From positions 1,824,001-1,888,000 of the forward strand of contig CAWGMQ010000004.1 in the NCBI GenBank assembly GCA_963823665.1: a DNA stretch of 64,000 bases, read 5' to 3'. Origin of the DNA: an uncultured Planctomycetota bacterium (GTDB taxonomy: Bacteria > Planctomycetota > Planctomycetia > Isosphaerales > Isosphaeraceae). The notes beneath the pieces are model-generated. The model saw nothing but the letters and a program-made list of their open reading frames with translations. It searched no databases and was not told the origin of the DNA. The stretch's first letter is position 1. Each line of letters opens with the position of its first letter. Below, piece by piece: positions 9,351 through 42,953 of this stretch. A program made the translations under genes and the position numbers.

Positions 9351-9386
9351 GACGATCTCGGCCCGGTCGGTTTATTAGAAGCGACG

Positions 9387-12285: not shown

Positions 12286-13790
12286 CTCACGCAAAGGCGC
12301 AACGGCGCAAAGAAGAGGGGCTGCCCGAAAGAAAACAAGCGACAACCGGACACTCCCGGGCACGCTGAGGGCGATGACCGGCGTTCCCTTAATGCTTACG
12401 GGCTAAAGAGCATCGTCAAGTCTACAAAACGAACTCTGCGGCGAAGCAGGGGAGGCGGGCTAGTGAAATCGAACATGAAGATGGGCTCACGCAAAGGCGC
12501 AAAGGCGCAAAGAAGAGGGCCGCCGTAAAAGAAATGAAACGGCCAAGGCGGGATTCTGATATCGAAGACGAAGATGAGTTCACGCAAAGGCGCAAAGGCG
12601 CAAAGAAGAGAGGCTGCGCGAAAGAAAACAGCGACACGCGGACACTCCCAGGCACGCTGACGGCGATGACCGGCGTTCCCTTAATGCTTACAGGCAAAAG
12701 AGCATCGTCAAATCTACAAAACGAACTCTGCGGCGAAGCAGGGGAGGCGGGGTAGTGAGATCGAGTATGAAGATGAGCTCACGCGAAGGCGCAACGGCGC
12801 AAAGGAAATGGGGGGCGTCCATGAACAGAACCGGCACGTGGACACTCCCAGGCACGCTGACGGCGATGGCCGGCGTTCCCTTACTGCTTGCAGGCAAAAG
12901 AGCACCGTCAAATCTACAAAACGAACTTTGCAGAGAAGCAGCGGAGGCGGGCTAGTGAGATGGAACATGAAGATGAGGTCACGCAAAGGCGCAAGGGCGC
13001 AAAGAAGAGGGGCGCCGTAAAAGAAATGAAACGGCCAAGGCGGAATTCTGAGAATCGTAGACGAAGATGAGTTCACGCAAAGGCGCAAAGGAAATCACAT
13101 GCATCAATGAAAAGAACTGGCACGCGGAGACGCCCAGGCACGCCGACGGCGATGGCCGGCGTTCCCTTACTGCTTGCAGGCAAAAGAGCACCGTCAAATC
13201 TACAAAACGAACTTTGCAGAGAAGCAGCGGAGGCGGGCTAGTGAGATGGAACATGAAGATGAGGTCACGCAAAGGCGCAAGGGCGCAAAGAAGAGGGGCG
13301 CCGCTCAGGGAATCACTCGGCCGAGCCGGACTTCTGAGATGGAAGACGAAGACGAGTTCGCGCAAAGGCGCGAAGGAAATCGGGTGCGTCCATGAACAGA
13401 ACCGGCACGTGGACGCTCCCAGGCACGCTGACAGCAATGACCCGCGTTCCCTTACTGCTTACAGGCAAAAGAGTATCGTCAAATCTACAAAACGAACTCT
13501 GCGGCGAAGCAGCGGAGGCGGACTAGTGAGATCGAGCATGAAGATGAGCTCACGCAAAGGCGCAAAGAAGAGGGGCACCGCTAAAGGAATCACTCGGCCG
13601 AGCCGGACTTCTGAGATGGAAGACGAAGACGAGTTCACGCAAAGGCGCAAAGCGCAAAGAAGATCAGGTGCCTCAATGAAAAGAATCGGCACGCGGACAC
13701 GCCCGGGCACGCTGATGGCGATGACTGGCGTTCCCTTACTGCTTACAGGCAAAAGCGCATCGTCAAATCTACAAAACGAAATCTGGGGAT
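12286..13790 (+). repeat. Composite tandem array of 10 units headed by TCACGCAAAGGCGCAA.., long (A, 192-200 bp) and short (B, 85-94 bp) modules in the order ABAABABABA
   Basis: Unit heads at 12287, 12487, 12580, 12779, 12979, 13073, 13265, 13358, 13550 and 13635; no continuous ORF. Confidence 0.92.
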
Positions 13791-14017
13791 AAGCAGGGGA
13801 CGCGGGCTTCCTCGAGGACCAGGCGCGCGGCCTTGGCCTGGGCTGAGGTTCGCGTATGCAGCCGTCATTGCTGAGTCCGTGGCCGGCAGCGAGCGGAAGT
13901 CGATCAGTCGTGTGCGTTCAGTTGTTCCGGACGAAACATGCACGATTCAACACTGAGTAACTACTTTTTGCTCATTAATTGATTTTGGGATGATCAAGTG
14001 GTACAAGTAGCGATTCT

Positions 14018-14135
14018 TCCTGCGCCACACGTATCGAGAAGGCCAGCATCGAGTTGCGTCTAAGTCGTGCGCGCCCGATTATTCCTGCGCCACACCTAAA
14101 CCCAAGCGCCGTAAGGCTGTGGCGCATGTGGCGCA
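14018..14135. repeat. Inverted arrangement of 9-mers: TGCGCCACA x2, then TGTGGCGCA x2 in tandem
   Basis: Copies at 14021, 14086, 14118 and 14127, downstream of an AT-rich stretch (~13945-14010). Confidence 0.75.
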
Positions 14136-14211
14136 GAAAATGGGGGGCCGCAAAAGTTTTTCGAACGCCCGCTGCCGCGGGCGATTGGGCGGAGGACGGA
14201 AGGCCGGACTA

Positions 14212-14272
14212 AGAGTACGAGTACGAGCACGAGTACGAGCAGGAGTAAGAGCAAGAGCGAGAGTACGCGAGT
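14212..14272 (+). repeat. Degenerate hexamer repeat GAG(T/C)A(C/G/A)
   Basis: GAGTACGAGTACGAGCACGAGTACGAGCAGGAGTAAGAGCAAGAG; a similar tract in reverse at ~57353-57386. Confidence 0.8.
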
Positions 14273-14343
14273 GCGTTCCCGTAGTCCTTGTGGTGTAAGG
14301 ACGCGCGACGAATGTACAAAACGAACTCGGGCGCGACGCGACC

Positions 14344-15525
14344 TTACCGAGATGGGGCGTTTGTGCGCACGGATTCAGGTGCCTTCGCGGGCTCGCCGGA
14401 TTCAAGGTCGAGCGGCGTCCACGCGGGATCACCGCTGACCGGATTCGAACGCGCGATCTGGCCGCCGGGGAATTGCACTGAGTAGTCGGAGAAACGCAGG
14501 TCGGGTACGGCGTAATCGGTACTGATGAACTGCGCTCCGCTCGAGAACGCCTTCTCCCGTTGACTGACGTCATTCTTGCGCGATTGAACCGTATCAGCGT
14601 CGGCTCGCGTTCGGACCATAAAGCCCTCTTTCACCAGCTTCTTGATGCGATCGTGATCCTTGATCGGGTCGTTGATCTTGAACCAGGCAGCGGCGGCATT
14701 CTCCGGCGCAACCGTGGCAAACATCACCCGATCGCGGAGCGCGGGATGACCGTCGAGGTAGCCGTTTCGTACCGAGCCTTCGTTGTCCAGTGCGAACATG
14801 ACGAGCCCGCGCACGTCCTCGAGCTTGGGCCAGCCCTTGGACTTGATGGCCTCGGGCAAGCTGGCGAATGTTCCGCGGACCCTGTCGGGCGTCAAGATCT
14901 CGGCCATCTGGAAGACAGTCAGGATTTCGGCGTCCACCGAATCGATTTCTTCTTTCCCAAACGGAACGGGGCGCGCGGGCAAGCCGGGGAGAGCATCGCC
15001 CTTGAGCTCAACCAGGATCAAGATCGGCACGTGCCGACGATTGGCCTGCGACCATGCGCGAATCTGTTTCAGTGCGTTCACAAAGGTCGGGGCGGTCGTG
15101 CGGAAGTCGATGTCGGGCACGTGCAGGATCTTCAGGCCAGGCTGCCGGAGCGCACCGCGGGCGTCAGGGTCTTCACCCGGATCTTTTCCGAGTGTACGCA
15201 CCATCGCCCGGGCCACCGGCGAGGCGAAAAGACCCCCCTTGGGGTCGGCGTAGACGTCGAGCTCAACCTGCCTGATTCCCTGTTTCGAGAATTGCTCGCC
15301 CAGTGGCGGATGGGAGTAGTCCAGAGCCTGCGCTCGTTGAGGATTGCGTGCAACGAGCATATCCGTGATCGCAGGAGAGGGCGCGACGTGGTACGAGTTG
15401 TGCGAGCCAATCACTTGAATCTGGTTGAGTCTCGGCTCTTCGGCCCAGGCAAGAGCGCCGGCATGAAGCGAAGCAATCAGGCAACCCAACCCGCCGGACC
15501 ATTGATTCATTCCACGGAATCTCAT
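14344..15525 (-). CDS. Ca2+-dependent phosphoinositide-specific phospholipase C-like protein, secreted
   Basis: [53 protein letters not shown]; signal peptide. Confidence 0.85.
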
Positions 15526-15781
15526 GCGAAGTGCTCCCCGAGTTCAAACGCTCATGGGCCAGCTATGCTCGATGACGCTGCCTGCGGAAAACCGGCTCGG
15601 CTGGAGCGTGCGTGGCGAGGCTGGCGCCGGTTGCCGACTTCCGCAAGGTTCGAGTGTCACCCCAAGCTTGACAGCCATGCGACCGCCGGTCCATATTGCG
15701 CTCGTAACGTGTCCAACGAGAGACATCGAGCGAACCTCGATTCATTCCATGCTGCGCGGCGACCAAGAGCCAGGACAACCC

Positions 15782-16174
15782 ATGACCGCCGTGCCCTCGG
15801 GATCGAAACCGGTCGACGACCCGAGGGTCTATCTGGCTGCCGAGCGCACGTTTCTCGCGTGGATTCGCACGTCGATCTCGCTCATGGGATTCGGGTTTCT
15901 GATCGCGAGGTTCGCCCTTTTTCTCCGTGCATATGGCCTTTCGAGCGGCGGGCCTGCCGCAACCAATCCAGGTCTCTCGAACACAGTCGGAGTCGGAATG
16001 GTCGGCGTGGGGGTTGCGGTCTGCGTACTCGCGGCTGTGCGTCACCGGGCATACATCGAGGCCCTCAAGAGGGGCGTCGGAAACCCTCCCCTGGATGTCG
16101 GAAAGTCGCTCGTGATCGCGGCTGTTCTAGCATTTGTTGGACTGGCCATCGCCATACACCTTGTCATGCTTTGA
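15782..16174 (+). CDS. YidH/DUF202 membrane protein
   Basis: [26 protein letters not shown]; three TM segments. Confidence 0.9.
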
Positions 16175-16187
16175 ATACGAGGCACCA

Positions 16188-17202
16188 ATGCAGCTCGGAA
16201 TGATCGGTCTGGGGCGGATGGGGTCGAACATGGTTCGGCGGCTCGAGCGAGCCGGGCAGGAATGCGTCGTTTACGACGTGCATACCGCGGCGACTAAACC
16301 GCTTGAAGGGGAGGGGGCCATACCCGCGACGACTCTGGACGAGCTGGTGAAGAAGCTCACCCCTCCGCGCGCCATCTGGCTGATGGTACCCGCAGCGAGT
16401 CGTCGATCAGACGATCGAGCAGCTCGTGGGCAAGCTCGAGAAGGGAGACATCCTGATCGACGGCGGCAATTCCTACTATCACGATGACATCCGCCGCGCG
16501 GCCGCACTCAAGCCAAAGGGAATTCACTACGTCGATGTGGGCACCAGCGGGGGCGTGTGGGGCCTCGAGCGTGGGTATTGCCTGATGATCGGCGGCGAGA
16601 CCGAGGTCGTGCAGCGGCTCGATCCTGTCTTCGCCGCACTGGCTCCCGGGCGTGGGAATCTGCCGCGCACGCCGGGCAGAGAAAAGGTCGGAGGCACTGC
16701 CGAGAACGGCTACCTTCACTGCGGGCCGAGCGGGGCAGGGCACTTCGTCAAGATGGTTCACAATGGGATCGAGTATGGCCTGATGGCCGCGTATGCGGAG
16801 GGGTTCAACATATTGCATCACGCCTCGGTCGGCAAGAAGTCTCAGGAAGTGGACGCTGAGACGACTCCGCTGCGAAACCCCGAGCTTTATCAATATGACT
16901 TGAATCTCGCCGACGTTGCCGAAGTCTGGCGACGCGGCAGCGTGATCGCGTCGTGGCTGCTCGATCTGGGCGCGCAGGCCTTGCTCAAGAGCCCGCAGCT
17001 TGGCGAGTTCTCGGGCCGCGTTTCCGATTCGGGAGAGGGCCGCTGGACAATCGATGCGGCCATCGACGAGGGCGTGCCTGCTCCCGTCTTGAGCGCGGCC
17101 CTGTTCGCGCGGTTCAGCTCGCGCGGCAACGATGACTTCGCCGATAAGGTCCTCTCAGCGATGCGTTTCGCCTTCGGCGGCCACATCGAGAAAAAGTCAT
17201 AA
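16188..17202 (+). CDS. gnd: 6-phosphogluconate dehydrogenase (decarboxylating, short YqeC type), frameshift ~16397
   Basis: [53 protein letters not shown]. Confidence 0.95.
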
Positions 17203-17219
17203 AATCCGGAGTGATCTCC

Positions 17220-18596
17220 ATGTCCAGGACCGCGATCCCGTCAGACGCCCTGGTCTTCTTCGGCGCTACCGGAGACCTGGCCTACAAGAAAATCTTCCCC
17301 GCCATTCAAAACCTCATCCAGCATGGCCACCTGGACGTGCCGATCGTCGGTGTTGCCAAGTCAGGTTGGGGGCTGGAAGACCTGGTCACCCGGGCGCGCG
17401 ACAGCCTGGAGAATCATGGCGGGATCGACGAGGCCGCATTCGCCACGCTTGTGGAGCGGCTTCGATACGTCGACGGCGATTACAACGACCCCGCGACCTT
17501 CGAGCAACTCAAAGAGGCGCTGGGCAGCGCCAGGCGGCCGCTGCACTACATGGCGATTCCGCCCAGTCTCTTCGGCCCGGTTGCGGAACATCTTGCCCAA
17601 TCCGGTTGCGTTGAGGACGCGCGGGTTGTGATCGAGAAGCCGTTCGGCCGCGACCTGACTTCGGCCCGCAAGCTGAACGACATCCTTCACGAAACCTTTG
17701 AAGAATCACGGATCTTTCGCATTGACCACTATGTCGGCAAGGAGCCGGTGCTGAACATCCTGAGCTTCCGGTTCGCCAACCTGTTCCTCGAGCCCATCTG
17801 GAATCGTAATTGCATCGACTGCATCCAGATCACGATGGCCGAGAACTTTGACGTGCAGGGCCGCGGCTCCTTCTACGAAGAGGCCGGGGCCATTCGTGAC
17901 GTCGTCCAGAACCACATGCTTCAGGTGGTCTCGATCCTGATGATGGAGCCGCCCGGAAGCAATGCACCTGATGGCATCCGCGACGAAAAAGTCAAGGTGC
18001 TCAGGGCCATTCGTCCGCTCGGGCCGGGCAGCCTGGTCCGCGGACAGTACCGCGGCTATCGCCAGGAAAAGGGAGTGGCCGATGAAAGCCAGGTCGAGAC
18101 ATTCGCGGCGGTGCGGCTCGAAGTGGATTCCTGGCGCTGGTCCAAGGTGCCGGTGCTCATCCGCGCCGGCAAGTCCCTCGCCAAAACCGCCACCGAGGTG
18201 ATGGTGAGCTTCCACTCTCCACCCCAGGAGACCGTGGCCCGGATGTCGATGGACCATTCTCACAATTATATTCGGATTCGATTCAACCCCGAAGAAATCA
18301 TTGCAATCGGCGCGGCAGTACGGAAAGAGGGTGAGACCGAGGAATTGATGCCGGTGGAAATGACGGCGAGCCGCAAGGCGGCCGACGAGGTGCCCCCCTA
18401 CGCCAGGCTGCTCCAATCGGCGATGTCCGGCGATTCGAGCCTCTTCGCTCGGGCAGACCTGATCGAAGCGCAGTGGGAAATCGTCGAGCCGGTGCTCGGG
18501 AATGTCACACCGCTCTTCTTCTACGAGCCGGGAAGCTGGGGTCCTCGCGAAGCCGACCGGCTGCTGCCTAGCGGCGAAGAGTGGCATAACCCTTGA
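17220..18596 (+). CDS. zwf: Glucose-6-phosphate 1-dehydrogenase
   Basis: GATGDLA, EKPFG, RIDHYVGKE, RDVVQNH. Confidence 0.97.
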   Translation: MSRTAIPSDALVFFGATGDLAYKKIFPAIQNLIQHGHLDVPIVGVAKSGWGLEDLVTRARDSLENHGGIDEAAFATLVERLRYVDGDYNDPATFEQLKEALGSARRPLHYMAIPPSLFGPVAEHLAQSGCVEDARVVIEKPFGRDLTSARKLNDILHETFEESRIFRIDHYVGKEPVLNILSFRFANLFLEPIWNRNCIDCIQITMAENFDVQGRGSFYEEAGAIRDVVQNHMLQVVSILMMEPPGSNAPDGIRDEKVKVLRAIRPLGPGSLVRGQYRGYRQEKGVADESQVETFAAVRLEVDSWRWSKVPVLIRAGKSLAKTATEVMVSFHSPPQETVARMSMDHSHNYIRIRFNPEEIIAIGAAVRKEGETEELMPVEMTASRKAADEVPPYARLLQSAMSGDSSLFARADLIEAQWEIVEPVLGNVTPLFFYEPGSWGPREADRLLPSGEEWHNP

Positions 18597-19942
18597 ACCC
18601 CTCCAGCAAGAATGCCGGCATGGGCGATACAAAACGATCACCGCACGTGGTGATCGTCGGTTCGGGGTTCGGCGGCATGGCAGCGGCGCATGGGCTGCGG
18701 CGAGCATCCGTGCGGGTGACGATCGTTGATCGTTCGAATCATCACCTCTTTCAACCGCTTCTGTACCAGGTGGCGACCGCTGCGCTCAGCCCGGCCGACA
18801 TTGCGGCGCCCATCCGCCGCGTTTTTCGCCATCAGTCGAACGTGAGCGTGCTGCTCGCCGATGCGACCGCTGTGGACCTCGGGCAAGAAAGGCTGATCCT
18901 GGCCGACGGCGTGCTGGATTACGATATTCTCATCCTGGCGACAGGCGTCACGCACGGTTACTTTGGCCATGACGAATGGGCGAAGTTTGCTCCGGGCTTG
19001 AAGACCCTCAAAGATGCGCTCACGATCCGGCAGCGGGTGCTGATGGCGTTTGAAATTGCCGAGCGCGAGCCCGACGACGAACGGCGCCGGGCGTGGCTGA
19101 CATTTGTGATCGTGGGTGCCGGCCCGACCGGGGTCGAGCTGGCAGGCACGCTCGCGGAGGTGTCGCGGCAGACGCTCGCGCGGGATTTTCGGCAGATCAA
19201 CACGGCCTCGGCGCGCGTGATCCTGGTCGAAGCCGCCCCACGGGTTCTCGGCGGCTACACGGAAGAGCTTTCGGAATCGGCCCGGTTGCAGCTTGAGAAG
19301 CTGGGGGTTGCAGTCTGGACTGGGATGAATGTCACGGGCATCGACGAGGAAGGCGTCACCATTGCTCGGGATCGGATTCATGCGAAGACAGTCCTGTGGG
19401 CTGCCGGAGTGGCAGCCTCGCCGCTGGCCGGCACGCTTGGTGTGCCACTCGACCGGGCGGGCCGCGTTCTCGTGCAGCCCGATCTGACGATCCCGGGGCA
19501 TGACAACGTCTATGCGATCGGTGACCTGGCTCACATCGAGCTTGACGGAGTGGTGGTGCCGGGCGTCGCGCCAGCGGCCATGCAGACCGGCTGGCACGCC
19601 GCCGAGAATGTCGCTCGCACGTTGCGCGGGCAATCGCGATTGCCCTTTCGCTATCGTGACAAGGGAATGCTGGCGACCATCGGGCGGGGATCTGCTGTCG
19701 CCAGGGTCGGCTCGATCAAGGCGACTGGGTTCCTTGCCTGGCTGCTCTGGCTGTTCGTGCACATCTTCTTCCTAATCGGTTTTCGCAACCGGCTGATCGT
19801 CATGATTCACTGGGCGTGGTCGTACTTCACGTTTGACCGAGGCGCGCGGCTGATCACCGAGCCCCTGCGGGAGCCGCTGCTGCGATCAACCTCGCACAGC
19901 ACGGAGAGTCACAGAGAGTCGAAATCGGGCGCTGCGAAATGA
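18593..19942 (+). CDS. ndh: Type II NADH dehydrogenase-like FAD oxidoreductase
   Basis: GSGFGG, HLFQPLLYQVAT, GAGPTGVELAG, YRDKGMLATIGR. Confidence 0.9.
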   Translation: MNPSSKNAGMGDTKRSPHVVIVGSGFGGMAAAHGLRRASVRVTIVDRSNHHLFQPLLYQVATAALSPADIAAPIRRVFRHQSNVSVLLADATAVDLGQERLILADGVLDYDILILATGVTHGYFGHDEWAKFAPGLKTLKDALTIRQRVLMAFEIAEREPDDERRRAWLTFVIVGAGPTGVELAGTLAEVSRQTLARDFRQINTASARVILVEAAPRVLGGYTEELSESARLQLEKLGVAVWTGMNVTGIDEEGVTIARDRIHAKTVLWAAGVAASPLAGTLGVPLDRAGRVLVQPDLTIPGHDNVYAIGDLAHIELDGVVVPGVAPAAMQTGWHAAENVARTLRGQSRLPFRYRDKGMLATIGRGSAVARVGSIKATGFLAWLLWLFVHIFFLIGFRNRLIVMIHWAWSYFTFDRGARLITEPLREPLLRSTSHSTESHRESKSGAAK

Positions 19943-20154
19943 GTACACTCGAGCATCCGCTGGTCTGTCGCCTTGGTGTTCGCGGACGCCCAGTGTCGGC
20001 CTTCGCTCCGCGACGGGACCTCCCAATCTCTGTCGCCTTGGTGTTCGTCGCGCCGGGGTGTAGACTGAAACCCGAGACCGAATGTCCTTTGGCCTTTTCG
20101 TGACCGCGAGCTCACCGCGGCTTGATCTTGCATCGTGCCGGAAGCGAGGGAGGA

Positions 20155-20586
20155 ATGGAAATCTTGGGAATCGGCACCGATATCATCGAATGCCCGCGCA
20201 TCGGCAAAATGATCGAGCATCACGGTGAGCTATTCTTGCGCCGGGTTTATACCGAACGCGAGATCCGTTATTGCCAGGCGAGGAAGCACGCCATCGAGCA
20301 CTTCGCCGGACGCTGGGCCGCCAAGGAGGCCATCCTGAAAGCGATGGGTACGGGCCGAAGCCATGGCATCTCGTGGACGAACGTCGAAATCCGCAACGGG
20401 CAGGATGGCCGTCCCCAGGTGCTGGTCTGCGGCGCCGCGCGGGAGACTGCCATCGCGCGCGGCATCGGCGATATCCTCATTTCGATTTCGCATTGCCGCA
20501 CCTATGCCACTGCATACGCCCTGGCACTGGGCCGGCCCGCGTGCCCGCCGAAGCCCTCGAGCGCAACGCTGCCGACGACGTCGTGA
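20155..20586 (+). CDS. acpS: Holo-[acyl-carrier-protein] synthase
   Basis: GIGTDIIE, AGRWAAKEAILKA, ISISH; GGAGG RBS. Confidence 0.95.
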   Translation: MEILGIGTDIIECPRIGKMIEHHGELFLRRVYTEREIRYCQARKHAIEHFAGRWAAKEAILKAMGTGRSHGISWTNVEIRNGQDGRPQVLVCGAARETAIARGIGDILISISHCRTYATAYALALGRPACPPKPSSATLPTTS

Positions 20587-20618
20587 AAACGACGCAGAGC
20601 TGTTCTCAAACGTGTGGT

Positions 20619-23244: not shown

Positions 23245-23549
23245 CCGTACTGGGCTTTTGAGGGGTCTTTCGAGCCACGGTGTTTCCTGCCTATCCTGAT
23301 TCCAGATCGCTGCTTCGGTCGAAAAGCCACCGCACGGAGCAGTGGGGTTGACCGATTGATTGAGATTGTTCCGGCGTCAATTCCTGCTACGATAGTACAT
23401 ACGCTGTGAAGGCTCCGGCTCCGAAACCACTCCCCTAAGCGACATAAGCTAGGGTATTGGTGCCTGTCAAGGGCGCCTCTCTGAAACCGTGTACGAAAGG
23501 CCATACATTTCCAGTCAGACCGAGATTAATTTGAAACCCGAGGAAGTCG

Positions 23550-25448: not shown

Positions 25449-25488
25449 CTTCTCCGCTGCGCTTTAGCGACCCTCTGTCGTCCCGTTG

Positions 25489-26100: not shown

Positions 26101-26108
26101 TGGCTCAC

Positions 26109-26630: not shown

Positions 26631-26801
26631 CTCGCCCAAGCCTCTTGGTTTCCTTCTACGAAGGATTTCACGACCCGGAGCTGTTGTATCGATTGCCATC
26701 GAGCTGTTTGCGCGGTCGACATTCGCGCATATTTGCCGCACACGCGGCAGACGGCGTATAATTAACTTTCATCCTACCTTATTTCCCTCTCGGTGATCGA
26801 C

Positions 26802-29669: not shown

Positions 29670-29810
29670 TCTAATCATGACACGTTCACACCCTTTCTCG
29701 CCGTGGCAACAAAAAGCCGCACCCGCGTGCAATCCGCTGCGTCAACCAGAGCAGAGGCCTCTCCTTCGGCCCGCGGCTTACATTCCTCTCTTCTTCCAGG
29801 AGCCCAACCG

Positions 29811-30155: not shown

Positions 30156-30245
30156 TCACCGCTTGCACTCAGGCAATATCGCTTGAAGCTCCCCAAGCTT
30201 CTCCGAAATCGTGAGCGCAGGCGCAGTTTGAATTCCCCTCTAGAG

Positions 30246-31322: not shown

Positions 31323-31349
31323 GTCGTCAAGAACCCACAACTCCGCCCA

Positions 31350-31688
31350 GTGAGCCGCCCCATGCTTTGCCACAATGTTTTCTTCTCGCTTCATGATCGC
31401 TCCGAGGCCGCGGTCGCAAAGATGCTGACCGCTTGCCGCAAATACCTGACCGGCCACCCTGGCACCCATTTCTTCGCCTGCGGAACCCCGAATCAGGAAC
31501 TGACTCGCCCGGTCAACGATCACGACTTCGACATCGCACTCCACATCGTCTTCGATTCCAAGGAAGCCCACGACGCATATCAGGAAGCACCAGCTCACGA
31601 GCAGTTCATCAAAGAAAACAAAGCTTCCTGGCGTCTCGTGCGCGTCTTTGACTCCGACGTCGAGCCAGCCCGCAACACAGCCCCGTGA
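31350..31688 (+). CDS. Dabb-family (stress-responsive alpha/beta barrel) protein
   Basis: HNVFFSL, DFDIALHIVF, HDAYQ..PAH, VRVFD. Confidence 0.85.
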   Translation: MSRPMLCHNVFFSLHDRSEAAVAKMLTACRKYLTGHPGTHFFACGTPNQELTRPVNDHDFDIALHIVFDSKEAHDAYQEAPAHEQFIKENKASWRLVRVFDSDVEPARNTAP

Positions 31689-31831
31689 TGTCACCTTAAC
31701 TCCCCTCGTTGCGAAGCAGGGCATGGTGGGCGAATGGCCCAACTCGCCAGTGATCCGATCAAACTACCCACATATTTTCCCCCCTTAAGAAGGGGGTAGG
31801 GGGGGTCGATCGCGAATGGCTCCCGTCCTCT

Positions 31832-33643: not shown

Positions 33644-33730
33644 TGTCAGAAAAAATGAACCATAAACCGTCTCATAAATCGTTGAGACGCGCCTAGCCCT
33701 CGCGTGGGCCAGCTCCCACGCCAGCCTCGC

Positions 33731-34148
33731 TCAAATCACCCACTCACGCGGCGAACATCGCCCCGCAAGCTGCGCGACTGTCGTCCGCGCCAGCACCGCG
33801 CGCTCAGCCGCACGTACATCGTCCCACACCGATTCGAGAACCGAGCTGATCGAGTGCGGATCTCCCCCGGATTCGTCCCCCTGTGCACCCGCCGGATCGA
33901 TCGCCGAAAGAATCTCGGACAGCGAAATCGACTCCGGCTTGCGCCAGGCGATATCCGCCCGTCGCCCCCCGAGTGCTCACAACCAGCCCCGCTCCCTTCA
34001 ATTGAAGCAGGATCTGCACCAGATATCGCTCCGGAATGCAGTACGTCCCCGCAATATCTCGGATCCGAACCGGACCCGTTCCCGGCCCGTGCTGCGCCAG
34101 CGCCACCACGGCCAGACATGCATACTCTGACTTCGCTGTGATCTTCAT
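33731..34148 (-). CDS. Rrf2-family regulator (CymR-like), frameshifted near 33937
   Basis: MKITAKSEYACLAV, IPERYLVQILLQLKGAGLVVSTRGATGGYRLA; C-terminus VWDDVRAAERAVLARTTVAQLA in another frame. Confidence 0.88.
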
Positions 34149-34199
34149 TGAATTGAGCCGAAGCCCATTCTCGACCTCTCGAATGCTAATCGCTGTCGA

Positions 34200-34925
34200 T
34201 CAAAGTAGACTGCTGTCGAGCGAGTGCAACCCGCATTCGGTCTTCGCGTGCCCCGCCCAGCGGCCCGCACGCTCCGAGTCGCCGCCGGCTACTGCTCGTG
34301 TGCACGGCCAGCACCCGATCGACGGGTATCCCTGGTCGTGCAGCGAATTGTAAGGCACGTTGTTCGTGGCGATAAACGCCCAGACGTCTCGCCGCGACCA
34401 GTGGAGGAGTGGATTCACCTTCACCAGACCGAACTTGCGGTCCTTCCCCACCACGCTCGCAGCCCCGCGATGCGACGATTGATCGCCTCGAATCGCCGTG
34501 ATCCACGCGTCGTAGCCCACGAGCGCCCTCCGCAACGGCACGATCTTCCGGTCATAGCAACACTGGTCCGGATGCGCCAGATACACTGGCCCCCCGTGCT
34601 CTTTCTCGTACTCGCCCGTTGTCGTCTCGGGCCGCACCATCTCCACCTCGATCCCATAGCGATCGCGAATCTGGTCCCGCAGCGCCAGCGTCTCGGCAAA
34701 CTGATATCCCGTGTCCAGATTAAAGACACGCACCTTCGGGTCAATCTCTGCCAGAAGATGAATCAGCACACACCCTTCCGCACCAAACGCCGTCGCCATC
34801 GTCAGCCGAGATTGAAATCGCTCGATCGCCCACTCCAGAATCCCGCGCGGGGTCGATCCTATCAATTTTGAGTTGACGTCTGTCCACTCTTCTTCGGCCA
34901 CAGCTACGGACAACGAGGTCGCCAT
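34200..34925 (-). CDS. cysH: Adenylylsulfate/phosphoadenylylsulfate reductase (Fe-S type)
   Basis: LDTGYQF, CC motif (DQCCYDRK), GYPSIGCWPCT, KTECGLH. Confidence 0.95.
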   Translation of the reverse strand: MATSLSVAVAEEEWTDVNSKLIGSTPRGILEWAIERFQSRLTMATAFGAEGCVLIHLLAEIDPKVRVFNLDTGYQFAETLALRDQIRDRYGIEVEMVRPETTTGEYEKEHGGPVYLAHPDQCCYDRKIVPLRRALVGYDAWITAIRGDQSSHRGAASVVGKDRKFGLVKVNPLLHWSRRDVWAFIATNNVPYNSLHDQGYPSIGCWPCTRAVAGGDSERAGRWAGHAKTECGLHSLDSSLL

Positions 34926-34958
34926 CTTGTCCTCCTTCCCAAATCAATCATGCGAATC

Positions 34959-35675
34959 TTACATATCCCGACGATCTAAGTCAAGATTCGCGGTCGCAAC
35001 CCAGGCAGGCAGACGCTCCTCGTGCCGGGTGATGGCCTGGTCGTGGAGCATCGTTTCGCCGATCGAGTCCTGTCCATGCAGCAGCCTGTGGCGATGAGCT
35101 TCGGGAATGGTGAAATGAAAAAGGCTGTCCACCGGCTCGGACGAGGTGTCGATTTGCGAATGAAGCTTTACCGTCTGCTCACGAAGGTCGATCGTGACTT
35201 CAACTGAGCCCGGGCTCTGGCGTGCCGCCCCGGCGATCGTCTCCCACTCGGCGTCGTCCAGCTCGATGGGGAGCAAGCCGTTCTGAAATGCGTTTGATTC
35301 GAAGATATCGGCAAACCCGGTCTTACGCCCCCGCGCGATCACCGCTCGATAGCCCGCCTGCGCCACCGCCCATACCGCGTGCTCGCGGCTCGAGCCGCAC
35401 CCGAAATTGTGACCCACCACCAGAACCGTGGCCCCTTTGACCGCACTGTCGTTCAGCGGAAATTCGCCCAGCTCCACGCCGTGTTCATTCGGCCGTTCAG
35501 CCTCGGGCGCCCCGCCCGGAGCATACCGCTTGTCGGCGAAGAGCAGGGGACCGAACCCCGTTCGCTCGATCTTCTTCAGGTAACGCGCGGGAATGATCAA
35601 GTCGGTGTTGACGTCGGTCCAGTCCAGGAGCGCCACGCGACCGCGATGAGTGATGAAAGGTTCCAAGAGAAACAA
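34959..35675 (-). CDS. leuD: 3-isopropylmalate dehydratase small subunit
   Basis: NTDLIIPARYLK, NFGCGSSREHAVWA, FADIFESNAFQNGLLP. Confidence 0.93.
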   Translation of the reverse strand: MFLLEPFITHRGRVALLDWTDVNTDLIIPARYLKKIERTGFGPLLFADKRYAPGGAPEAERPNEHGVELGEFPLNDSAVKGATVLVVGHNFGCGSSREHAVWAVAQAGYRAVIARGRKTGFADIFESNAFQNGLLPIELDDAEWETIAGAARQSPGSVEVTIDLREQTVKLHSQIDTSSEPVDSLFHFTIPEAHRHRLLHGQDSIGETMLHDQAITRHEERLPAWVATANLDLDRRDM

Positions 35676-35684
35676 CTCCGGGGC

Positions 35685-37097
35685 TTAATGCGTCTGGGAT
35701 AACAGCCTGCGCACATCCGCGAATCGCCCGATCACCGCCGCCGCCGCTGCCATGGCTGGGCTGACCAGGTGGGTCCGCCCCCCCGGCCCTTGCCGGCCCT
35801 CAAAGTTGCGGTTGCTGGTGCTGGCAGATCGCTGGCCCGGCTGGAGCTTGTCGGGGTTCATCGCCAGGCACATGCTGCACCCCGCTTTGCGCCACTCGGC
35901 GCCCGCCTCCAGAAAAATCCGGTCGAGCCCCTCCGCCTCGGCTTGATGACGAACCGCCTCGCTGCCGGGCACGACCAGGGCCCGCACGCTCGCTGCCACC
36001 TTCCGGCCGCGCAGCACGCGCGCCGCGGTGCGCAGGTCCTCGATCCGCCCGTTGGTGCATGAGCCAATGAACACCACGTCAACCGGAATCTCCGTGACCG
36101 GCGTTCCCGGAACGAGCCCCATGTATTCGAGTGCGCGCCTCGCGTCCTCGGCTGACGCAAACGGTACGTCTTCCGGCTCCGGCACCAATCCGGTCACGTC
36201 CACCGTCATGCCGGGGTTCGTTCCCCACGTCACCTGGGGCACAAGCGCCGATGCGTCGATTGAGACCCGGCGGGCAAACGCTTCCTCCGTGTCCGTGCGC
36301 AGAGTCTTCCAGTCGGCGATCGCGGCTTCAAGAACAGCCCCGCGAGGGGCGAACGGGCGCTCGCCCTCCGTGATGTAATTGATCGTCACGTCGTCCGGCG
36401 CGATCAGTCCGGCACGCGCCCCCGCCTCGATCGACATGTTGCAGATTGTCATCCGCCCTTCCATCGACAGAGCCTCGATCGCCCTCCCGTAATATTCGAT
36501 CGCATGCCCCGTCGCGCCGCCGGTGCCAATCTTGCGGATGATCGCCAGAATGATGTCCTTCGGCTCGAGCCCGGGTCCGAGGCACCCGGTCACCTCGATT
36601 CCAAAGGATGCCGGCCGAAGTCCCTGCCAGAGCGTCTGCGTCGCCAGAACATGCTCCACCTCACTGGTGCCGATTCCAAACGCCAGCGCGCCGAAGGCCC
36701 CATGTGTGCTCGTGTGGCTGTCGCCGCAAACAACGGTCATTCCTGGAAGCGTCAGCCCCAGCTCCGGCCCGATCACGTGCACGATCCCCTGCCGCCCGCT
36801 CGCGATGTCATAAAGCGCGATCCCGAACTCCGGGCAGTTGGCCCGCATCGCCTCCACCTGCCGCCGCGACAGCGGGTCGGCAATCGCAATCTGCTCGTCT
36901 GTCGGAACGTTGTGATCGACCGTTGCGAATGTTAAGTCCGGCCTGCGCACCCGCCGCCCCGCTAGCCTCAATCCCTCGAACGCCTGCGGACTCGTCACCT
37001 CGTGCAACAGATGCCGGTCGATATACTGCAGCGTCGCCTCGTCCGTCTGCTCCACCACGTGCCGGTTCCATACCTTCTCAAATAACGTCTCACCCAT
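35685..37097 (-). CDS. leuC: 3-isopropylmalate dehydratase large subunit
   Basis: [52 protein letters not shown]. Confidence 0.96.
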
Positions 37098-37506
37098 CGT
37101 TCAAAAACCTTCGCCGTGAATTAAAACTTGAGGACTCAAACGCGACGCTTCAGTTGAATTCATGCTCCCTCTCCCCCCGGGAGAGGGCCGGGGTGAGGGG
37201 CCTTCGGTGCGAGATCGCAAGTTGATTCATGCCCCCTCTCCCCCCGGGAAAGGGCCGGAGTGAGGGTTTCCCCGCACGCCGACACTCCCCGCCCCATTCT
37301 GGTTCACAACCGTTCCACCATACCAAGATTGTCATCCTCGGCTCCCCCCACGACAAGGCTTCCCATTCATCACTACGCCGCTCCAGCCGTTCGTCGCCTC
37401 GCGCCCACCAACCAGATCGCATTCCCAGCTTAAGTTCCCTCAAGCACCCACCCTGGCACTCGTCCGACATTTGTGGTAGGATTCCCCCAAACTGACCCCA
37501 GCAACG

Positions 37507-37524
37507 GACAACTGACAACTGACA
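37507..37524 (+). repeat. Heptamer repeat (GACAACT)n
   Basis: GACAACTGACAACTGACAA; a longer tract at 60583-60610. Confidence 0.75.
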
Positions 37525-37532
37525 AAAATCAA

Positions 37533-39478
37533 ATGCCAATCCTCCGCCGTGAGCTGACACTCTCCGCCCGTCGCGGCCGCGTCCATGTCGACCGCGCCTG
37601 GTTCGCGGGTATCCTCCTCGTCATCGTGCTGGGTACGTTCATCTCCTGGTATTACGCCCTCAAGGGGGCATGGAGCGCCGACATGATGTCGGCGGTCGCC
37701 ACTCGGTCGTTTCTCTTTGTGGTGATCGCACACGCCATGTCGATCTTCATGCTCTCCACGATCGGGGCAGTCTCCATCGCCGGCGAGGTGGATCGAAAAA
37801 CCCTGGGATTCCTGCTCGCAACCCGCCTGGGAAACGCCGAGATCGTTCTCGGCAAGTTCGCGGCTTGTATGATTGGGTTCCTCAGCATTGTCGCCGCCGG
37901 CCTGCCGGTGATGCTTCTCTTGAACGTCTTGGGGGGCGTGCACCCGCAGTTGATCTTGCTGGCTTATGCGGGAATCCTCTCGACCGCGTTTTTCATCATC
38001 TCCTTGGCGCTCTGGGTCTCGAGCGGTGCTCCGGATGGCCGCCGCGCGACGAGCATCGCGGTGCTCGCCGTCATGGCTTGGCTTTTCGTTCCGATGCTCT
38101 TGGGAATGACCCCGCTTCTCTCGCGAATCGGCATCCGGCCGCCCGACGTCCTCGTCACGATCAACGCGTGGATTCTCTCCAGCAACCCCGTCAGCCTGCT
38201 CCCGCGGTTCATCGGCGGCGTCAACCCGCGAGCACTCTCCTCCGCAGTCTCCTGGATGTGCGGCCTCCAGCTCGCCTCGGGCGCCGTCTTCGTCGCCGCG
38301 TCGATATTCCGGCTCCGCAGCGCTTATCGCACCAATGTGGGCGGCGACGGACACGGCGTGATGCGCCGCCTCGCACTGCCCGCATGGCGCTTCCGGCCTC
38401 GCCCACCGGTGGGCGACGACCCGATCTTCTGGAGAGAGCGCTACACCTCCCGCTCCGGATTGATCGGTCAGCTCGTGGGCTTCTGCATCACAGTGGCGAT
38501 CTATTGCACGCTCGCCTACTTCACCTTTTTCTTCGCACGCCCGGCCTTCGTTGAGCTCTGGCATCACGGCTACACCGCCGCGACCGCATCCGCCCAGAAG
38601 CCCGAGCTCAACCTCCTCGTCCGATTGTTTATGGAGCAATCCGGCCCCGGCACTCCGATCGACGCAGCCAGGACCCAGTTCAACATTTTTCTCCGCTTCG
38701 TGACCGGCGCGGTCCTGTTCATGATCGCCCTCATTTCCACCGGAATTGCCCTCGAGGTGCTCAGCGCCGAGCGCACCAGGGAGACCTGGAACAGCCTGAT
38801 CGCCACGCCTCTCTCCGGCCGTGATATCCTGCTCGGCAAGTTCCGCGCCTGCCTCTGGCGGCTGGCGGAATCCTGGTAACGGTCCTGTCGCTCTGGACAC
38901 TCGGGCTCCTCTCGGGCGCGCTTCATCCGCTGGGTTTCCTCGCTGCTGTGCTCATCTTGGCCTCCTCGACCAGCCTGTTCCTGGTCTTCGGCCTCCGGGT
39001 CGCGTTGACAACTGCCGATCGGAACGCCGCCGCCGGTCGAACCGTAATTCCGATGCTCGTGCCGATGGTCTCGGTGGCCCTTCCTTTCCTGCTGCCGGCC
39101 CGCTTCAGCTCGGTCTTGTGGGGCGTGGCATCGATCCCGCTGCTCGCCTCGCTCTCGCTCGTCACCTATGGCGAGCTGCATCACTCGCTCCAGCACCCGC
39201 ACGGCCTCTACCTGGCTGCGGAGTGGATCGGCCTTCGCAGCGGTGATGCTCCAATCACCGCCGCGCTCACCTGCCTGATCGGGATCATCACCCCCGCACT
39301 CGCCGCCTGGTGGATCTGGAACCATTGCCTGGCAAACTTCGACCGCTGGGTCGGTCGCCCATGGTCGCCTCATCGGCTATACCAGGCAACCAATTTCTCT
39401 AGCTCGCCGCGCTCGGCCAGTGTCCGCATCGCAAAGCGAACGTGGGGCAACGCCAGCATCTGGTCACCCCCGAAATGA
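37533..39478 (+). CDS. ABC-2-type transporter permease with duplicated permease domain, frameshift ~38866; 3' end uncertain
   Basis: SIAGEVDRKTLGFLLATRLGNAEIVLGKF and SAERTRETWNSLIATPLSGRDILLGKF; many TM helices. Confidence 0.8.
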
Positions 39479-40632
39479 TCGTCAACAACCTGAATTGCTT
39501 GCTCCACCGCTTTGACCGGAGCCAGGCCGGTAAAAGCTCGTGAGAGCCACAAGATCATCGGCAGCGTGAGCACGAGCGATTCAAGGCCGGCCCACAGCGG
39601 CATGTTGAAGTTAGGCGGCCCGCAGAATTGCAGCGAATTCAGCTTGACCACATAGTACCGCTCCAGAGTCTCATCCACTTCTGCCGGCATCCCGCTGCTT
39701 TGTTCGACCTCGTCGAAGCTGATGGCTTCCGGCAGGAACTCGTTCACGCGCGGCACGCGGCCCCGGCCCCGGGCGAACCGCCACCCGTCGCGCACCCGGC
39801 TGAGCCCTCGCCGGATGCCCTTGGCCCGGTGTACGTCGCGTTCCCGTCGGGCAAAAATCGGCAGTAGCACGCGGAACAGCACCTTCCCGAGCATTCGGTC
39901 GGGCGGCGGCACGTCCGCTGCTTCGCGGAGCACGTCCGTATCCACCGCGGCGCGCACAACCTGCAAAAACTCACTCAGACCCTTGCCTTTCAGGCCGTCC
40001 AGCTTCGCCTTGCGGCAAACGCGAGCCACAGCCAGGCACTTGCGCAGCCTTCGTTCGACACGATCGCTCCGGTCTTGCACGATCTCCACCAGCACCTGCA
40101 CGACCCGGCATACATCCGCCCACGGAAGCTGCTGGCCGGCTTGCAGCAAAGGAGCCGGCGCACTGTCCGCCGACCGGCCTTCGTGTTTTTCCAGCAAGCG
40201 CAAAAGCGCGACCAGGTCTTTTTCCGCGCCGCCCACCGGGCGACCCGAATTCGCCGCGGCCGACGGGCAAGAGAAACGCATGCCAACCCGCCATTGATTG
40301 CCTGCTGGTATGAGCATGAACGGAAACAAACGGCATACGAACGGTTTAACCTCGGCCCCGAAACGCTCTTGAAGCCGGCAATGGTTGGCCGTCGTCAAGA
40401 AGACGCAACCCCCATCAGGCCGATGTTTCAGCGTCCACTTCTTGTTGCCCCGACCCACCAGGGGCGCAAACCACGGCTTGGGAGCAACCTCAGGATCATT
40501 TGCCAGGTCCAGCGCTTCGATGCGAGCCTTCTCTTCCTCCGTGATCACCCCCTCAAGCCGCCGGCAGCAATCGCCGCAGCTATGGCAGTCCCAGTTTTGC
40601 ATCACAGGCAGATTCTTCAACGGAAACGACAT
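39370..40632 (-). CDS. YkgJ-family cysteine-cluster protein (FliB-like)
   Basis: CHSCGDCC, CVFL..CRL..KPFVCRLFPF, SCP. Confidence 0.8.
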   Translation of the reverse strand: MSFPLKNLPVMQNWDCHSCGDCCRRLEGVITEEEKARIEALDLANDPEVAPKPWFAPLVGRGNKKWTLKHRPDGGCVFLTTANHCRLQERFGAEVKPFVCRLFPFMLIPAGNQWRVGMRFSCPSAAANSGRPVGGAEKDLVALLRLLEKHEGRSADSAPAPLLQAGQQLPWADVCRVVQVLVEIVQDRSDRVERRLRKCLAVARVCRKAKLDGLKGKGLSEFLQVVRAAVDTDVLREAADVPPPDRMLGKVLFRVLLPIFARRERDVHRAKGIRRGLSRVRDGWRFARGRGRVPRVNEFLPEAISFDEVEQSSGMPAEVDETLERYYVVKLNSLQFCGPPNFNMPLWAGLESLVLTLPMILWLSRAFTGLAPVKAVEQAIQVVDDHFGGDQMLALPHVRFAMRTLAERGELEKLVAWYSR

Positions 40633-40835
40633 GGATACAGTCCGCCTCTGAGCCCGCCAAACCCCGGTCACGCCACACCTTGCCTTGATGACGACATGCC
40701 CAGAACCTGGAACCCCGTCGTCGCACGACACGACCACTCACCCATCATAATATTCGCCGACTTCTTGTGCCCCACCATCGTTGCCCCGAGACTTGATCAT
40801 CTCACAAAAAACGCACGCCCAAGCGGGCAAAGAAA

Positions 40836-42953
40836 TTAACCGCTGTTTTCGCGTGGCACATTTACACAAAATGTCGAGCTCGGCCATTTCGCGGCCAAAG
40901 ATGCCGAGCTCGGCATTCCCGAACGCAGCGCCGCGCCCGAACTCGCCGACGAGCAATCCACATCTCGTCCCTCCGCACTTGGTGGCCCGAGGCCATCCGA
41001 AGCATCGCCATCGTCCCCCTGACCGAAGGCCTCCTCTCCCATCGTTCGGCGCGGGTCTCGGGCACCCGAAAGGTCACCGGCGTCCCCGTGCTCTACAGTT
41101 CGGCGCGGGTCTCGGGCACCCGATGGGTCGCCGCCGTCTCCCCGACCGCAGGTCTCCACTCCCCCACCACCCTCTCGTTCGCAACCACTCGCACCATCCC
41201 CACCAATCTCGTTTTGTATTTTCGTCGCTGGCCCTTTCTCCACAAGGCTTAAGGGAACAAGACCGCACGCCTCACCATTCCCGGTCTCCCCACGACCGAC
41301 GGTCTCCTCTCCGCCTTCTCCGCAAGTTCGACGCGGGTCTCGGGCACCCAAAGGGTCACCGGCGTCCCCTTGCTCTACAGTTCGGCGCGGGTCTCGGGCA
41401 CCCGATGGGTCGCCGCCGTCTCCCTGACCGACGGTCTCCTCTCCGCCTCCAACTTCCAGCTCGACACTGCTCCCACCACCCCCCTCAATTTCGTTTTGTA
41501 TTTTCGTCGCTGGCTCATTCCCCATAAGGCTTAAGGGAACAGAACCGTTGGGCTCAACAACCGCAGTTCCATGCCCCGAAAATGCCTCGTCCCTCGGCTT
41601 CATCCCACCATCAGCCACCACTCCGTGCACCCCATCTGCTCTCCGATCACCCGCAGCATTCCCACGCTCCCCAGCCACCCACCGCTCATAATCCGCAATG
41701 GCCCGCCGCCTGCGATCATCCTCCTCGCGCTGCGCATCGGTATACTCGAACGGCTGCTTCCCGTGCGTCGCCTCCCAGCGGGCCAGGCCCGCGTCGAGAT
41801 CGCCATCATAGCCCTGGGCATCGTGAATGGTCCCACGCTCGTCGATCACAAACCGCAGATCGGTCATCTGCCCGCGTCGTGCTTGCTCTTTCAGTTTCTC
41901 GCGTTCCCGCCGGGCCTTCCCCCACCCTTCCGCCTCATACCGTCGCTTCCTTTCAATCATCTCAATGTTCCGCACCACCAGTCGATTGGCTTTCTCCCGA
42001 TGGCGCTGAATCTGTGCCATCGTCTTGCTCTCCTCGTCGCTCGGGATATTGCACTGAACCTCCTCGAGGAAGGCGGCGACTTCTCCCCGCTCGGCTTGCA
42101 GCCTCAGCAGCCGGTCAATCGATTTGTCGACGATCTCCAGCAGCGCCTTCCGCCCGGCCGCGGTATCCGCCGGAGTGATTGCCTCCCACTCGTCTCGCCC
42201 GAGGTCGCCCTCATGCATCTCAACCTGATCATAGTGGATCTCGCACCGAAGCTCGTGAAAAGCCGTCGCAAAATTCGGACAAATGGCGTGGCTCGCGAGG
42301 AACACCATGGCCACCTCGGGATCACAAATGGCATCAAGCGGCTGCTTGCCCAGCAGGCGAATGGCCGTGAATTTCTGACACGAAAGCCAGCCCGATCCGT
42401 CCTCGCTCTCGTTCTCGATCGGCTTCCGCAGCTCGAACCACCGGTCCAGCAGCCAGCCGCAGCCCTCGGGGGTCGATTCAAGCTCGCGCACGATCACCAC
42501 CGGCTGATCAGGGTCAACAGGTTCCCCCGAATCCGAGGTCCGCGGCTGCTTGTTCTCATAGTCTCGCGACGGAAAAAGCTGCCAGGGCCCGCGGCGGTCA
42601 AACAACAAGCGACGCCCGAGCCCCGCGACATCCTTCCCCGCGCGAACCTTTTCGGCCTCCGTTCGCATCACAATATCGCGTGTCACCCTGTGGGCCTCGA
42701 TTCGATTGGCCCGCTTGAACTGCCAGCAAGCGATCGCCGCCATCTCCATCAGGTCTCCCTCGACCTCGTCTCTCGTCTGATACTTGGCCTTATAAGCATC
42801 AATCTTCGCCTGAAGCTCCGCCGGATCCTCGCCCGGCAAAACCGGCGTCTTGGCTGTCAGCCCATGCTTGAGCGCATTGAACCGCGACCCATTGCGAGTC
42901 GAGGCTCGCTGATCCTTCATCCCAACATTCACCGCACCCTGCTGCTCACTCAT
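40836..42953 (-). CDS. Hypothetical protein with N-terminal 'SRFNALKHGLTA' motif and a repeat-built C-terminus
   Basis: Long intact ORF; NALKHGLTAKTPVLPGED; low-complexity tail with 2x VPLSL..KIQNEI and 4x GARDPRRT. Confidence 0.8.
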   Translation of the reverse strand: MSEQQGAVNVGMKDQRASTRNGSRFNALKHGLTAKTPVLPGEDPAELQAKIDAYKAKYQTRDEVEGDLMEMAAIACWQFKRANRIEAHRVTRDIVMRTEAEKVRAGKDVAGLGRRLLFDRRGPWQLFPSRDYENKQPRTSDSGEPVDPDQPVVIVRELESTPEGCGWLLDRWFELRKPIENESEDGSGWLSCQKFTAIRLLGKQPLDAICDPEVAMVFLASHAICPNFATAFHELRCEIHYDQVEMHEGDLGRDEWEAITPADTAAGRKALLEIVDKSIDRLLRLQAERGEVAAFLEEVQCNIPSDEESKTMAQIQRHREKANRLVVRNIEMIERKRRYEAEGWGKARREREKLKEQARRGQMTDLRFVIDERGTIHDAQGYDGDLDAGLARWEATHGKQPFEYTDAQREEDDRRRRAIADYERWVAGERGNAAGDRRADGVHGVVADGGMKPRDEAFSGHGTAVVEPNGSVPLSLMGNEPATKIQNEIEGGGGSSVELEVGGGEETVGQGDGGDPSGARDPRRTVEQGDAGDPLGARDPRRTCGEGGEETVGRGETGNGEACGLVPLSLVEKGPATKIQNEIGGDGASGCEREGGGGVETCGRGDGGDPSGARDPRRTVEHGDAGDLSGARDPRRTMGEEAFGQGDDGDASDGLGPPSAEGRDVDCSSASSGAALRSGMPSSASLAAKWPSSTFCVNVPRENSG
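40990..41545 (-). repeat. In-frame ~282-bp tandem duplication containing the 51-bp module and pairs of REP-like GGTGCCCGAGACCCGCG(C/T)CGAAC units
   Basis: Module copies at 41208-41258 and 41490-41540; REP-like copies at ~41044, 41098, 41326 and 41380. Confidence 0.85.

Follow-up and report, generated by a model that had tools for sequence, protein, structure and literature searches.

In a 64,000-nucleotide stretch of an uncultured Planctomycetota bacterium of the family Isosphaeraceae (contig CAWGMQ010000004.1, positions 1,824,001 to 1,888,000; hereafter the window), a 51-bp module was present both in a non-coding array and inside the 3' part of a gene of the NAxKHG family, referred to here by a motif of its protein. 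We found that the module is a directional non-coding box, kept as DNA, and that it stands at the junction of exchangeable segments and is tied to the 3' end of the gene. The explanation that we favour, tentatively and at a little less than an even chance, is that the box is a putative protein-binding site at the 3' end of selfish gene cassettes, which would spread by recombination among existing intergenic islands similar to bacterial interspersed mosaic elements (BIMEs); both the binding and the mobility are read from sequence comparison.

A directional box kept as DNA

The pattern GTTCCC-N34-TACAAAACGAR matched the window nine times, always with the same N34 spacing, against 0.01 matches expected by shuffling. 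The starts and strands of these copies, given in a preliminary description of the window, were confirmed, as were the in-frame position of the two minus-strand copies within the open reading frame (ORF) at 40836-43067 and the presence of a dyad in the solo copy and in one gene copy. The statement that every copy reads V-P-x-x-L...QNE did not hold, as in-frame stops interrupt the copies at 12383 (VPLMLTG-stop) and 14275 (VPVVLVV-stop).

The genome of the window (16.46 Mb in 12 contigs) contained 149 copies with at most one mismatch and no match to a reversed-pattern control. The only other genome of the genus, that of a sister species, contained 86 copies, and each of 39 further relatives searched contained 0 or 1. 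Because of these 149 copies, of which the window holds nine, the link between array and gene across 28 kb is not special, contrary to what had been proposed. Moreover, the copies in the array are of a gene-free subtype, which recurs at gene-free sites elsewhere (L002, L013, L123, and L135), so their distance from the gene is incidental; the gene's copies are of another subtype, and an origin of the array in this gene was not supported.

The detailed analysis covered fetched stretches, chosen around modules and genes, and the shares given below describe these stretches rather than genome-wide rates. A profile scan recovered 137 modules in the window's genome, with 104 of those being gene-free, 28 lying inside NAxKHG ORFs, and 5 lying just behind such genes; the same profile recovered 35 modules in the sister genome and none with the reversed control. 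The fixed bases of the module were GTTCCC.TA...CTT.......AA......G.C.AA..TACAAAACGAA, and its edges were sharp and conserved while the flanks differed. It comprised three ACGAA-like boxes, one inverted and two direct, arranged around phased TT/AA steps; in-gene modules were often directly preceded by TTC, so that TTCGTT and AACGAA formed an inverted pair with GACGAA between them.

Stops in the QNE frame were present in 66 of the 104 gene-free modules, and all 47 in-gene modules were stop-free. Conservation at the third codon position of modules was 0.90, versus 0.80 and 0.91 at the first and second positions, respectively. In-gene modules used CAA (47 of 47), TTA or GTA (44 of 47), and AAC (45 of 47) almost without exception, counts that are not independent given the common ancestry of the copies; in the gene core, CAA made up 36 of 218 Gln codons, TTA 7 of 562 codons, and GTA 8 of 290. 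Four-fold sites were more alike in in-gene modules (0.75) than in the gene core (0.61). The earlier proposal that the QNE tail of the protein is a translated DNA site was supported by the gene-free stops and the use of CAA. The converse explanation, in which QNE is a protein repeat and the gene-free copies are only pseudogene debris, would account for the absence of stops from in-gene modules and for N-E being read by 76 of the 97 in-ORF sense boxes of distant homologues (see below). It is opposed by the stops in most gene-free copies, the rare invariant codons of in-gene copies, the boxes in other frames and on the other strand, and the high conservation among unrelated flanks. As sole explanation, it was refuted by the gene-free stops and codon-use counts, and we give it hardly any chance.

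It was also considered that the module could act as RNA at the 3' ends of cassette transcripts, with copies spreading via an RNA intermediate. Homology between paralogues started about 140-350 bp upstream of the motif, close to promoter-like boxes, and modules and leaders were co-oriented, as this explanation would have it. However, no RNA folding signal was detected in 126 modules (median z of -0.33 in sense and -0.08 in antisense), an Rfam search gave no match to the module, the family box was antisense in 29 of 166 cases, and the promoter itself often lay within the upstream homology. An RNA role is thus very unlikely.

The NAxKHG genes and their boxes

The NAxKHG gene family is multi-copy and has neither a name nor a family assignment. 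With 46-52 family matches in the window's genome, at least three subfamilies were distinguished, and the 51-bp module belonged to subfamily A, which includes the window gene: a module was located in or just behind the gene at 17 of the 18 fetched subfamily-A loci, the exception being L074. The association of the module with the 3' ends of NAxKHG genes, as anticipated in the preliminary description, was borne out genome-wide and across phyla. Subfamilies B and C had other modules with ACGAA boxes.

Genes of subfamilies B and C (L051-L054, L058-L060) carried fixed-spacing tail modules of their own, read as TNEPK...QNEE...LRTNP and PNEANF...QTNPIFLETKP, and several were preceded by a TTTTGTAGATCRTC motif mirroring the 3' half of the module. 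Terminal inverted repeats, to which the inverted TTTTGTAGATCRTC upstream of these genes pointed, were considered and rejected, as the motif was not seen upstream of the subfamily-A genes compared.

A set of 150 distant homologues from Planctomycetota, Acidobacteriota, and other groups was also examined, 14 loci of the closest clade being excluded. AAACGAA was found behind the core in 75 of them in sense and in 25 in antisense, for an expectation of 6. An AAACGAA(C/G)C box, to which the 3' box of the module corresponds, followed distant homologues in several phyla, in every reading frame and on either strand: among 166 such boxes, 76 were read in frame as N-E, 21 were in other frames, 40 were outside the ORF, and 29 were antisense. 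An excess of boxes was found in 30 of 36 genomes with a gene match versus 9 of 25 without (61 genomes, among which kin are not independent). These boxes give an unassigned protein family a candidate DNA site, and explain its odd N-E-P/Q-N-E tails as translated DNA.

The family counted 2,633 representatives at 50% identity, and its gene core was under purifying selection, with a median dN/dS of 0.39 (130 of 136 pairs). Scans for related loci with a single protein or a wide alignment found nothing; closer alignments worked. A plasmid search returned a few planctomycete and other matches, including a homologue on a plasmid of a cultured Isosphaeraceae, and cultured phages gave no real match. On one plasmid (L157, NZ_CP011274.1), a family member adjoined the plasmid parA and replication initiator genes. 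In the sister genome, the tails of the genes at L142-L147 were built of tandem units (about 384, 459, and 510 bp) with 4-6 modules, which extended the open frames to as many as 1,387 codons.

The window protein was composed of a helical core of about 400 aa, encoded at 41664-42953, and a low-complexity tail made of DNA repeats. The core was predicted to form long helices (predicted local distance difference test score, pLDDT, of 89), and the short form of the family was likewise predicted to be helical. Searches of Pfam, NCBIfam, and PHROGs gave no useful match for the window protein or long homologues, nor did a PDB sequence search; Foldseek and VIA, run on both models, gave best Z scores of 8.0 and 7.7 that corresponded to generic helices only, with no significant fold match, and the ESM Atlas returned only unnamed clusters or scores below 0.8. 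These blank searches do not amount to evidence of a new fold.

A 43-residue basic N-terminal motif was common to the family and to phage small terminases. An HHalign comparison for the family reached 99.1 over 43 columns, where profile homology ends. Matches to two PHROG small-terminase families were weak, with 16 of 58 short members matching one (best E 1.4e-3) and 4 the other (best E 2.3e-4), and among the fold matches of the predicted helical models small terminases appeared only at chance-level E-values. Of 39 viral loci with the N-terminal motif, a set picked by this motif and mostly from one phage clade, 33 had a downstream ORF, which was a large terminase in 28 (11 by PHROG, 17 by BLAST to those). 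In the phage clade L354-L386, small-terminase genes encoded STGP...NAxKHG followed by a cysteine-rich stretch, most of them without a Pfam match.

Islands, junctions and orthologous sites

Module islands were rich in hairpins resembling repetitive extragenic palindromes (REPs) and in short tandem repeats. Neighbouring modules were co-oriented in 61 of 63 pairs. A non-coding segment, U, located ahead of the window array (Table 1), was accompanied by a same-strand module within 2.5 kb for 29 of 40 U pieces and by an opposite-strand module for 1. Among 9180 module pairs, flanks were shared on the left only in 264, on the right only in 93, and on both sides in 106; sharing ended no more than 4 nt from the box in 185 of 204 left-only pairs, a distance that is short partly by construction and was not used as proof. 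Repeats of 4-7 nt flanked 48 of the 137 modules, versus 37 by shuffling, and had no fixed length.

The U segment, of 600-680 bp, had its genome matches at 70-91% identity, and the copies at L085, L089, and L092 switched at one point to the same alternative downstream sequence. The commonest gene-free unit was considered as a decayed helix-turn-helix (HTH) gene and this was rejected, the likeness being by eye only and not confirmed by tblastn. Among the sequencing runs listed, none holding the sequence was of RNA, and the matches were contigs with small shares. Loose ends at 12674, 13780, 14267, and 14275, together with one 14324-to-14275 joint from a single contig, were too weak to use, and the best of these runs may be the one from which the window derives.

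Copies of the genes were compared within and between genomes. The window gene had a copy on another contig that was 98.5% identical over 41098-43014 and diverged about 60 bp upstream of the start. Six gene copies of the sister genome were 96-98% alike over the gene, with less similar leaders and with 3' ends that were ragged in REP-like DNA; ragged ends were also observed in paralogue sets of other genomes. The aligned paralogue sets showed neither terminal inverted repeats nor target duplications of a fixed length.

Five orthologous sites, with flanks 77-89% alike, were compared between the window's genome and that of the sister species, the closest relative available. Clean empty sites, which the preliminary description had looked to relatives for, were not observed at these five sites: the sister genome had other content or another copy, and the flanks were never joined. 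The site of the window gene was occupied by other genes, that of L125 by unrelated genes, and that of the window array by a different island with two co-oriented modules. At the L124 site, the sister genome contained an HTH-like gene behind a leader piece common to subfamily-A genes (81-82% over 51-52 nt). At the L066 site, its NAxKHG gene, one of the six copies above, was only 70% like that of the window's genome and 96% like its own paralogues. Overall, the orthologous sites look like old sites at which content has been replaced and copies have been homogenised.

Small HTH-like genes of the sister genome (L137:8709-9098, L391:1091-1570) were preceded by 10-11-bp tandem repeats and occupied the sites of a NAxKHG region or a module island of the window's genome; they make up another cassette family of similar style, and are intact genes without a firm family. 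At L139 (G001:C5:1081645-1082406, in the sister genome), we observed a second, partial copy of the 3' part of a phospholipase C gene, about 7 kb from the full gene and across an island.

Table 1. Features of the window linked to the 51-bp module and the NAxKHG gene.
Feature	Position	Strand	Remarks
Repeated segments	11038..11479	+	recur upstream of subfamily-A genes L063, L070, L072
Non-coding U segment	11601..12280	+	co-oriented with modules; 47 genome matches
Part of U	11685..11855	+	matches upstream promoter-like region of subfamily-C NxRKHG genes (L058 73%, L060 73%)
Tandem array	12284..13794	+	units of 292, 200, 286, 285, 284 bp, one module each; ten CACGCAAAGGCGCAA repeats
Module, array copy 1	12383..12433	+	pattern match; stop in QNE frame
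Module, array copy 2	12675..12725	+	pattern match
Module, array copy 3	12875..12925	+	pattern match
Module, array copy 4	13161..13211	+	pattern match
Module, array copy 5	13446..13496	+	pattern match
Module, array copy 6	13730..13780	+	pattern match
Repeated segment with TGCGCCACA motifs	13889..14191	+	common to other module islands (L014 87%; L003, L006, L010)
GAGTAC-type short tandem repeat	14213..14260	+	common island component
Module, solo copy	14275..14325	+	pattern match; commonest gene-free subtype; in-frame stop
Subfamily-A NAxKHG gene	40836..42953	-	ORF open from GTG 43067; start ATG 42953 inferred from paralogue alignment
Tail duplication	41014..41547	-	two units of ~260 bp, 83% alike; both modules and REP-like GGAGACCCGCGCCGAAC repeats
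Module, second in-gene copy	41208..41258	-	pattern match
Module, first in-gene copy	41490..41540	-	pattern match; ~70 codons behind folded core
Upstream leader	42960..43607	-	86% like copy on contig C12; GTACCATTTC-type 10-11-bp repeats

Directly to the left of the island, a defence patch (7234-10929) was observed, consisting of an AAA_21 ATPase and RloB gene pair (7234-9350) and, behind it, remnants of a bacteriophage exclusion (BREX) system (a BrxA match at 10393-10929 and a weak PglX match at 9936-10388). Two very large proteins of immunoglobulin-like (Big_3_5) repeats, of 2,115 and 1,452 aa, were encoded in tandem in the region 46456-57088 of the window.

Interpretation and comparison with known systems

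In the explanation that we favour, the NAxKHG protein or a paralogue would bind ACGAA boxes via the basic N-terminal motif that is common with phage small terminases, and would oligomerise through its long helices. The protein is probably not itself a recombinase, and strand exchange is therefore proposed to fall to the recombination machinery of the host, with HUH nucleases associated with REPs perhaps initiating it and leader, module, and REP sequences serving as homology. Both the tandem arrays and the protein tails, which are variable and rich in repeats, would arise by unequal exchange between modules. The window array may accordingly be described as a gene-less island, with a leader followed by six amplified module units and then a solo module. 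The earlier suggestion that the array is a gene-less derivative thus stands for its first part, namely a gene-less island whose leader matches the region upstream of subfamily-C genes, and not for its descent from the window gene.

A bolder extension, which we think doubtful, is that NAxKHG genes and ACGAA boxes together constitute an undescribed, phylum-spanning selfish element made of one gene and no enzyme. Its protein, with a motif taken from phage small terminases, would bind the box in its own coding tail and draw host recombination, or the packaging motor of a helper phage, to hundreds of chromosomal sites, thereby building the repeat islands of the very large genomes of soil planctomycetes and acidobacteria. 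A literature search, whose coverage excluded most subscription journals, returned no description of this element, nor of the motifs 'NALKHG' or 'HGGxSTG'. If true, spread without a transposase would represent a new route for the multiplication of bacterial genes and repeats, and would help to explain the size of these genomes, 13-16 Mb, and their long mosaic intergenic regions; the candidate DNA site makes a direct binding test possible.

Several observations weigh against the explanation that we favour, in addition to the shared ancestry of in-gene copies mentioned above. Recombination into existing islands leaves the founding of new islands unexplained, and recent copying alone would also yield repeats that are alike. 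In the sister genome, no module was found at the sites of the window gene and of L125. The box excess followed the gene in most genomes, with 15 of the 61 breaking the pattern (6 of 36 gene-positive genomes without excess and 9 of 25 genomes lacking a gene match with it). Subfamily A, that of the window, has lost the first (STGP) half of the terminase-type motif and keeps the NAxKHG half. Finally, no ACGAA box was found near the viral small-terminase loci that have this motif, in 39 kb, and the motif alone therefore does not predict the box.

Among the other explanations, that of the preliminary description took the CCTT-N7-AAGG dyad as the core site of a tyrosine recombinase, with crossover in the 7-bp spacer. 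The dyad was near-perfect in the commonest gene-free subtype, and flanks reassort around the module. As a feature of the family, however, the dyad failed: among 154 distinct modules, only TT-N7-AA was fixed, and pairing (observed/expected 0.64/0.59, 0.79/0.80, 0.95/0.96, and 0.98/0.98) was that expected of independent positions. Spacer positions differed in 49-67% of unrelated pairs, and positions 29-31, to the right of the spacer, travelled with the left flank (mismatch of 0.04-0.05 versus 0.36-0.59 in 156 left-shared pairs, which are not independent), contrary to a crossover in the spacer. Moreover, the extended dyad was present beside 0 of 107 boxes of distant homologues, and the protein showed no invariant Tyr in wide alignments and no match to a recombinase family. 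Among 97 ORFs neighbouring 17 loci, none matched a recombinase, transposase, or terminase (E 1e-12), in a scan that left out 19 of the 116 listed ORFs because they probably ran antisense to the gene or lay far away, the rest of the genome not being searched for a recombinase. The tyrosine-recombinase explanation is thus largely refuted, and we regard it as highly improbable. The TT-N7-AA core could also be read as similar to an integration host factor (IHF) site; its fit to the IHF consensus was not exact. A more passive origin would make the module a passenger, i.e. a piece of gene 3' end caught between REP hairpins and amplified by REP-associated tyrosine transposases (RAYTs), as in BIMEs, and would leave it without a dedicated partner protein. 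One study reports that BIMEs have captured rayt 3' ends (PMC2817692), REP-like hairpins and short tandem repeats abound in the islands, and each of the two genomes had 11 Y1 transposase matches. One Y1 locus of the sister genome, L417, was packed with the GTAG-type REP of the islands and held one module; its transposase is likely a RAYT. By contrast, within 1.5 kb of the other 19 of the 20 Y1 loci checked, among them all 11 from the window's genome, neither a module nor any of three island probes was present, so that 1 of the 20 loci held a module. The module was conserved with sharp edges while its flanks differed, its box recurred behind homologues of other phyla on either strand, and modules were co-oriented instead of alternating. 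This passenger role appears unlikely.

According to the last explanation, the gene would be a derivative of a phage small terminase and the boxes would be packaging-start decoys, steering the large terminase of a helper phage to hundreds of chromosomal sites, with cassettes and flanks being transduced and then recombined in. In its favour, the 43-residue motif is common to genes that lie directly before large terminases, the candidate site is inside the gene, as pac sites often are, and three large-terminase-like matches were found in the window's genome; the layout of ACGAA boxes around phased TT/AA steps also presumably recalls lambda cosB. Small terminases combine a DNA-binding N-terminus with a coiled-coil (PMC6854486), an architecture in line with this proposal. 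On the other side, the homology is limited to the 43 columns and to a viral set picked by the motif and mostly from one clade, these viral genes had no boxes nearby, and subfamily A is without half of the motif. No large terminase was found beside the gene, either among the 97 neighbouring ORFs of 17 loci or among the window ORFs scanned, and phrog_9231 matched nothing in the window's genome. We consider such a packaging role improbable.

Compared with att, dif, and attC sites, the module is similar in being a short dyad around 7 bp with many copies and with flanks that change at the site, and differs by the absence of covariation, of a crossover in its variable spacer, and of a linked recombinase. 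Insertion sequences and miniature inverted-repeat transposable elements (MITEs) resemble the system in having a multi-copy gene with gene-less derivatives and an ORF that extends across its terminal DNA motif; in contrast to these, the NAxKHG cassettes matched no transposase family or fold, had ragged ends where neither terminal inverted repeats nor a target duplication of fixed length was seen, and were homogenised at an old site. With phage small terminases (PMC6854486), their pac or cos sites, and satellites that use terminases, such as phage-inducible chromosomal islands (PICIs), the family has in common the 43-residue basic motif, the long helices after the motif, and a candidate site within the gene. 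It differs from them by a homology restricted to the motif, by the absence of large terminase or capsid genes nearby, by dozens of solo chromosomal copies, and by the box, which the viral genes compared do not have.

The closest likeness was to REP/BIME (REPIN) sequences and their RAYT genes (PMC2817692, PMC3733652). The module lacks a hairpin (median fold z of -0.33 in 126 modules, with no covariation) and a GTAG or CGTC head, and it is co-oriented instead of alternating; its cognate gene, unlike the RAYT gene, is multi-copy, predicted to be all-helical, without a Pfam match, and not a HUH transposase. As in REP/BIME-RAYT systems, high copy number and lineage restriction (149 and 86 copies versus 0-1 in 39 relatives) were combined with mosaic intergenic arrays: more than 100 short copies per genome, both extragenic and intragenic, form tandem mosaic islands into which the 3' end of the cognate gene enters. 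The module was classed as a dispersed repeat with a cognate gene, and by analogy, setting aside hairpin, orientation, and enzyme, on which the likeness fails, the system appears to work most like the REP/BIME-RAYT pair.

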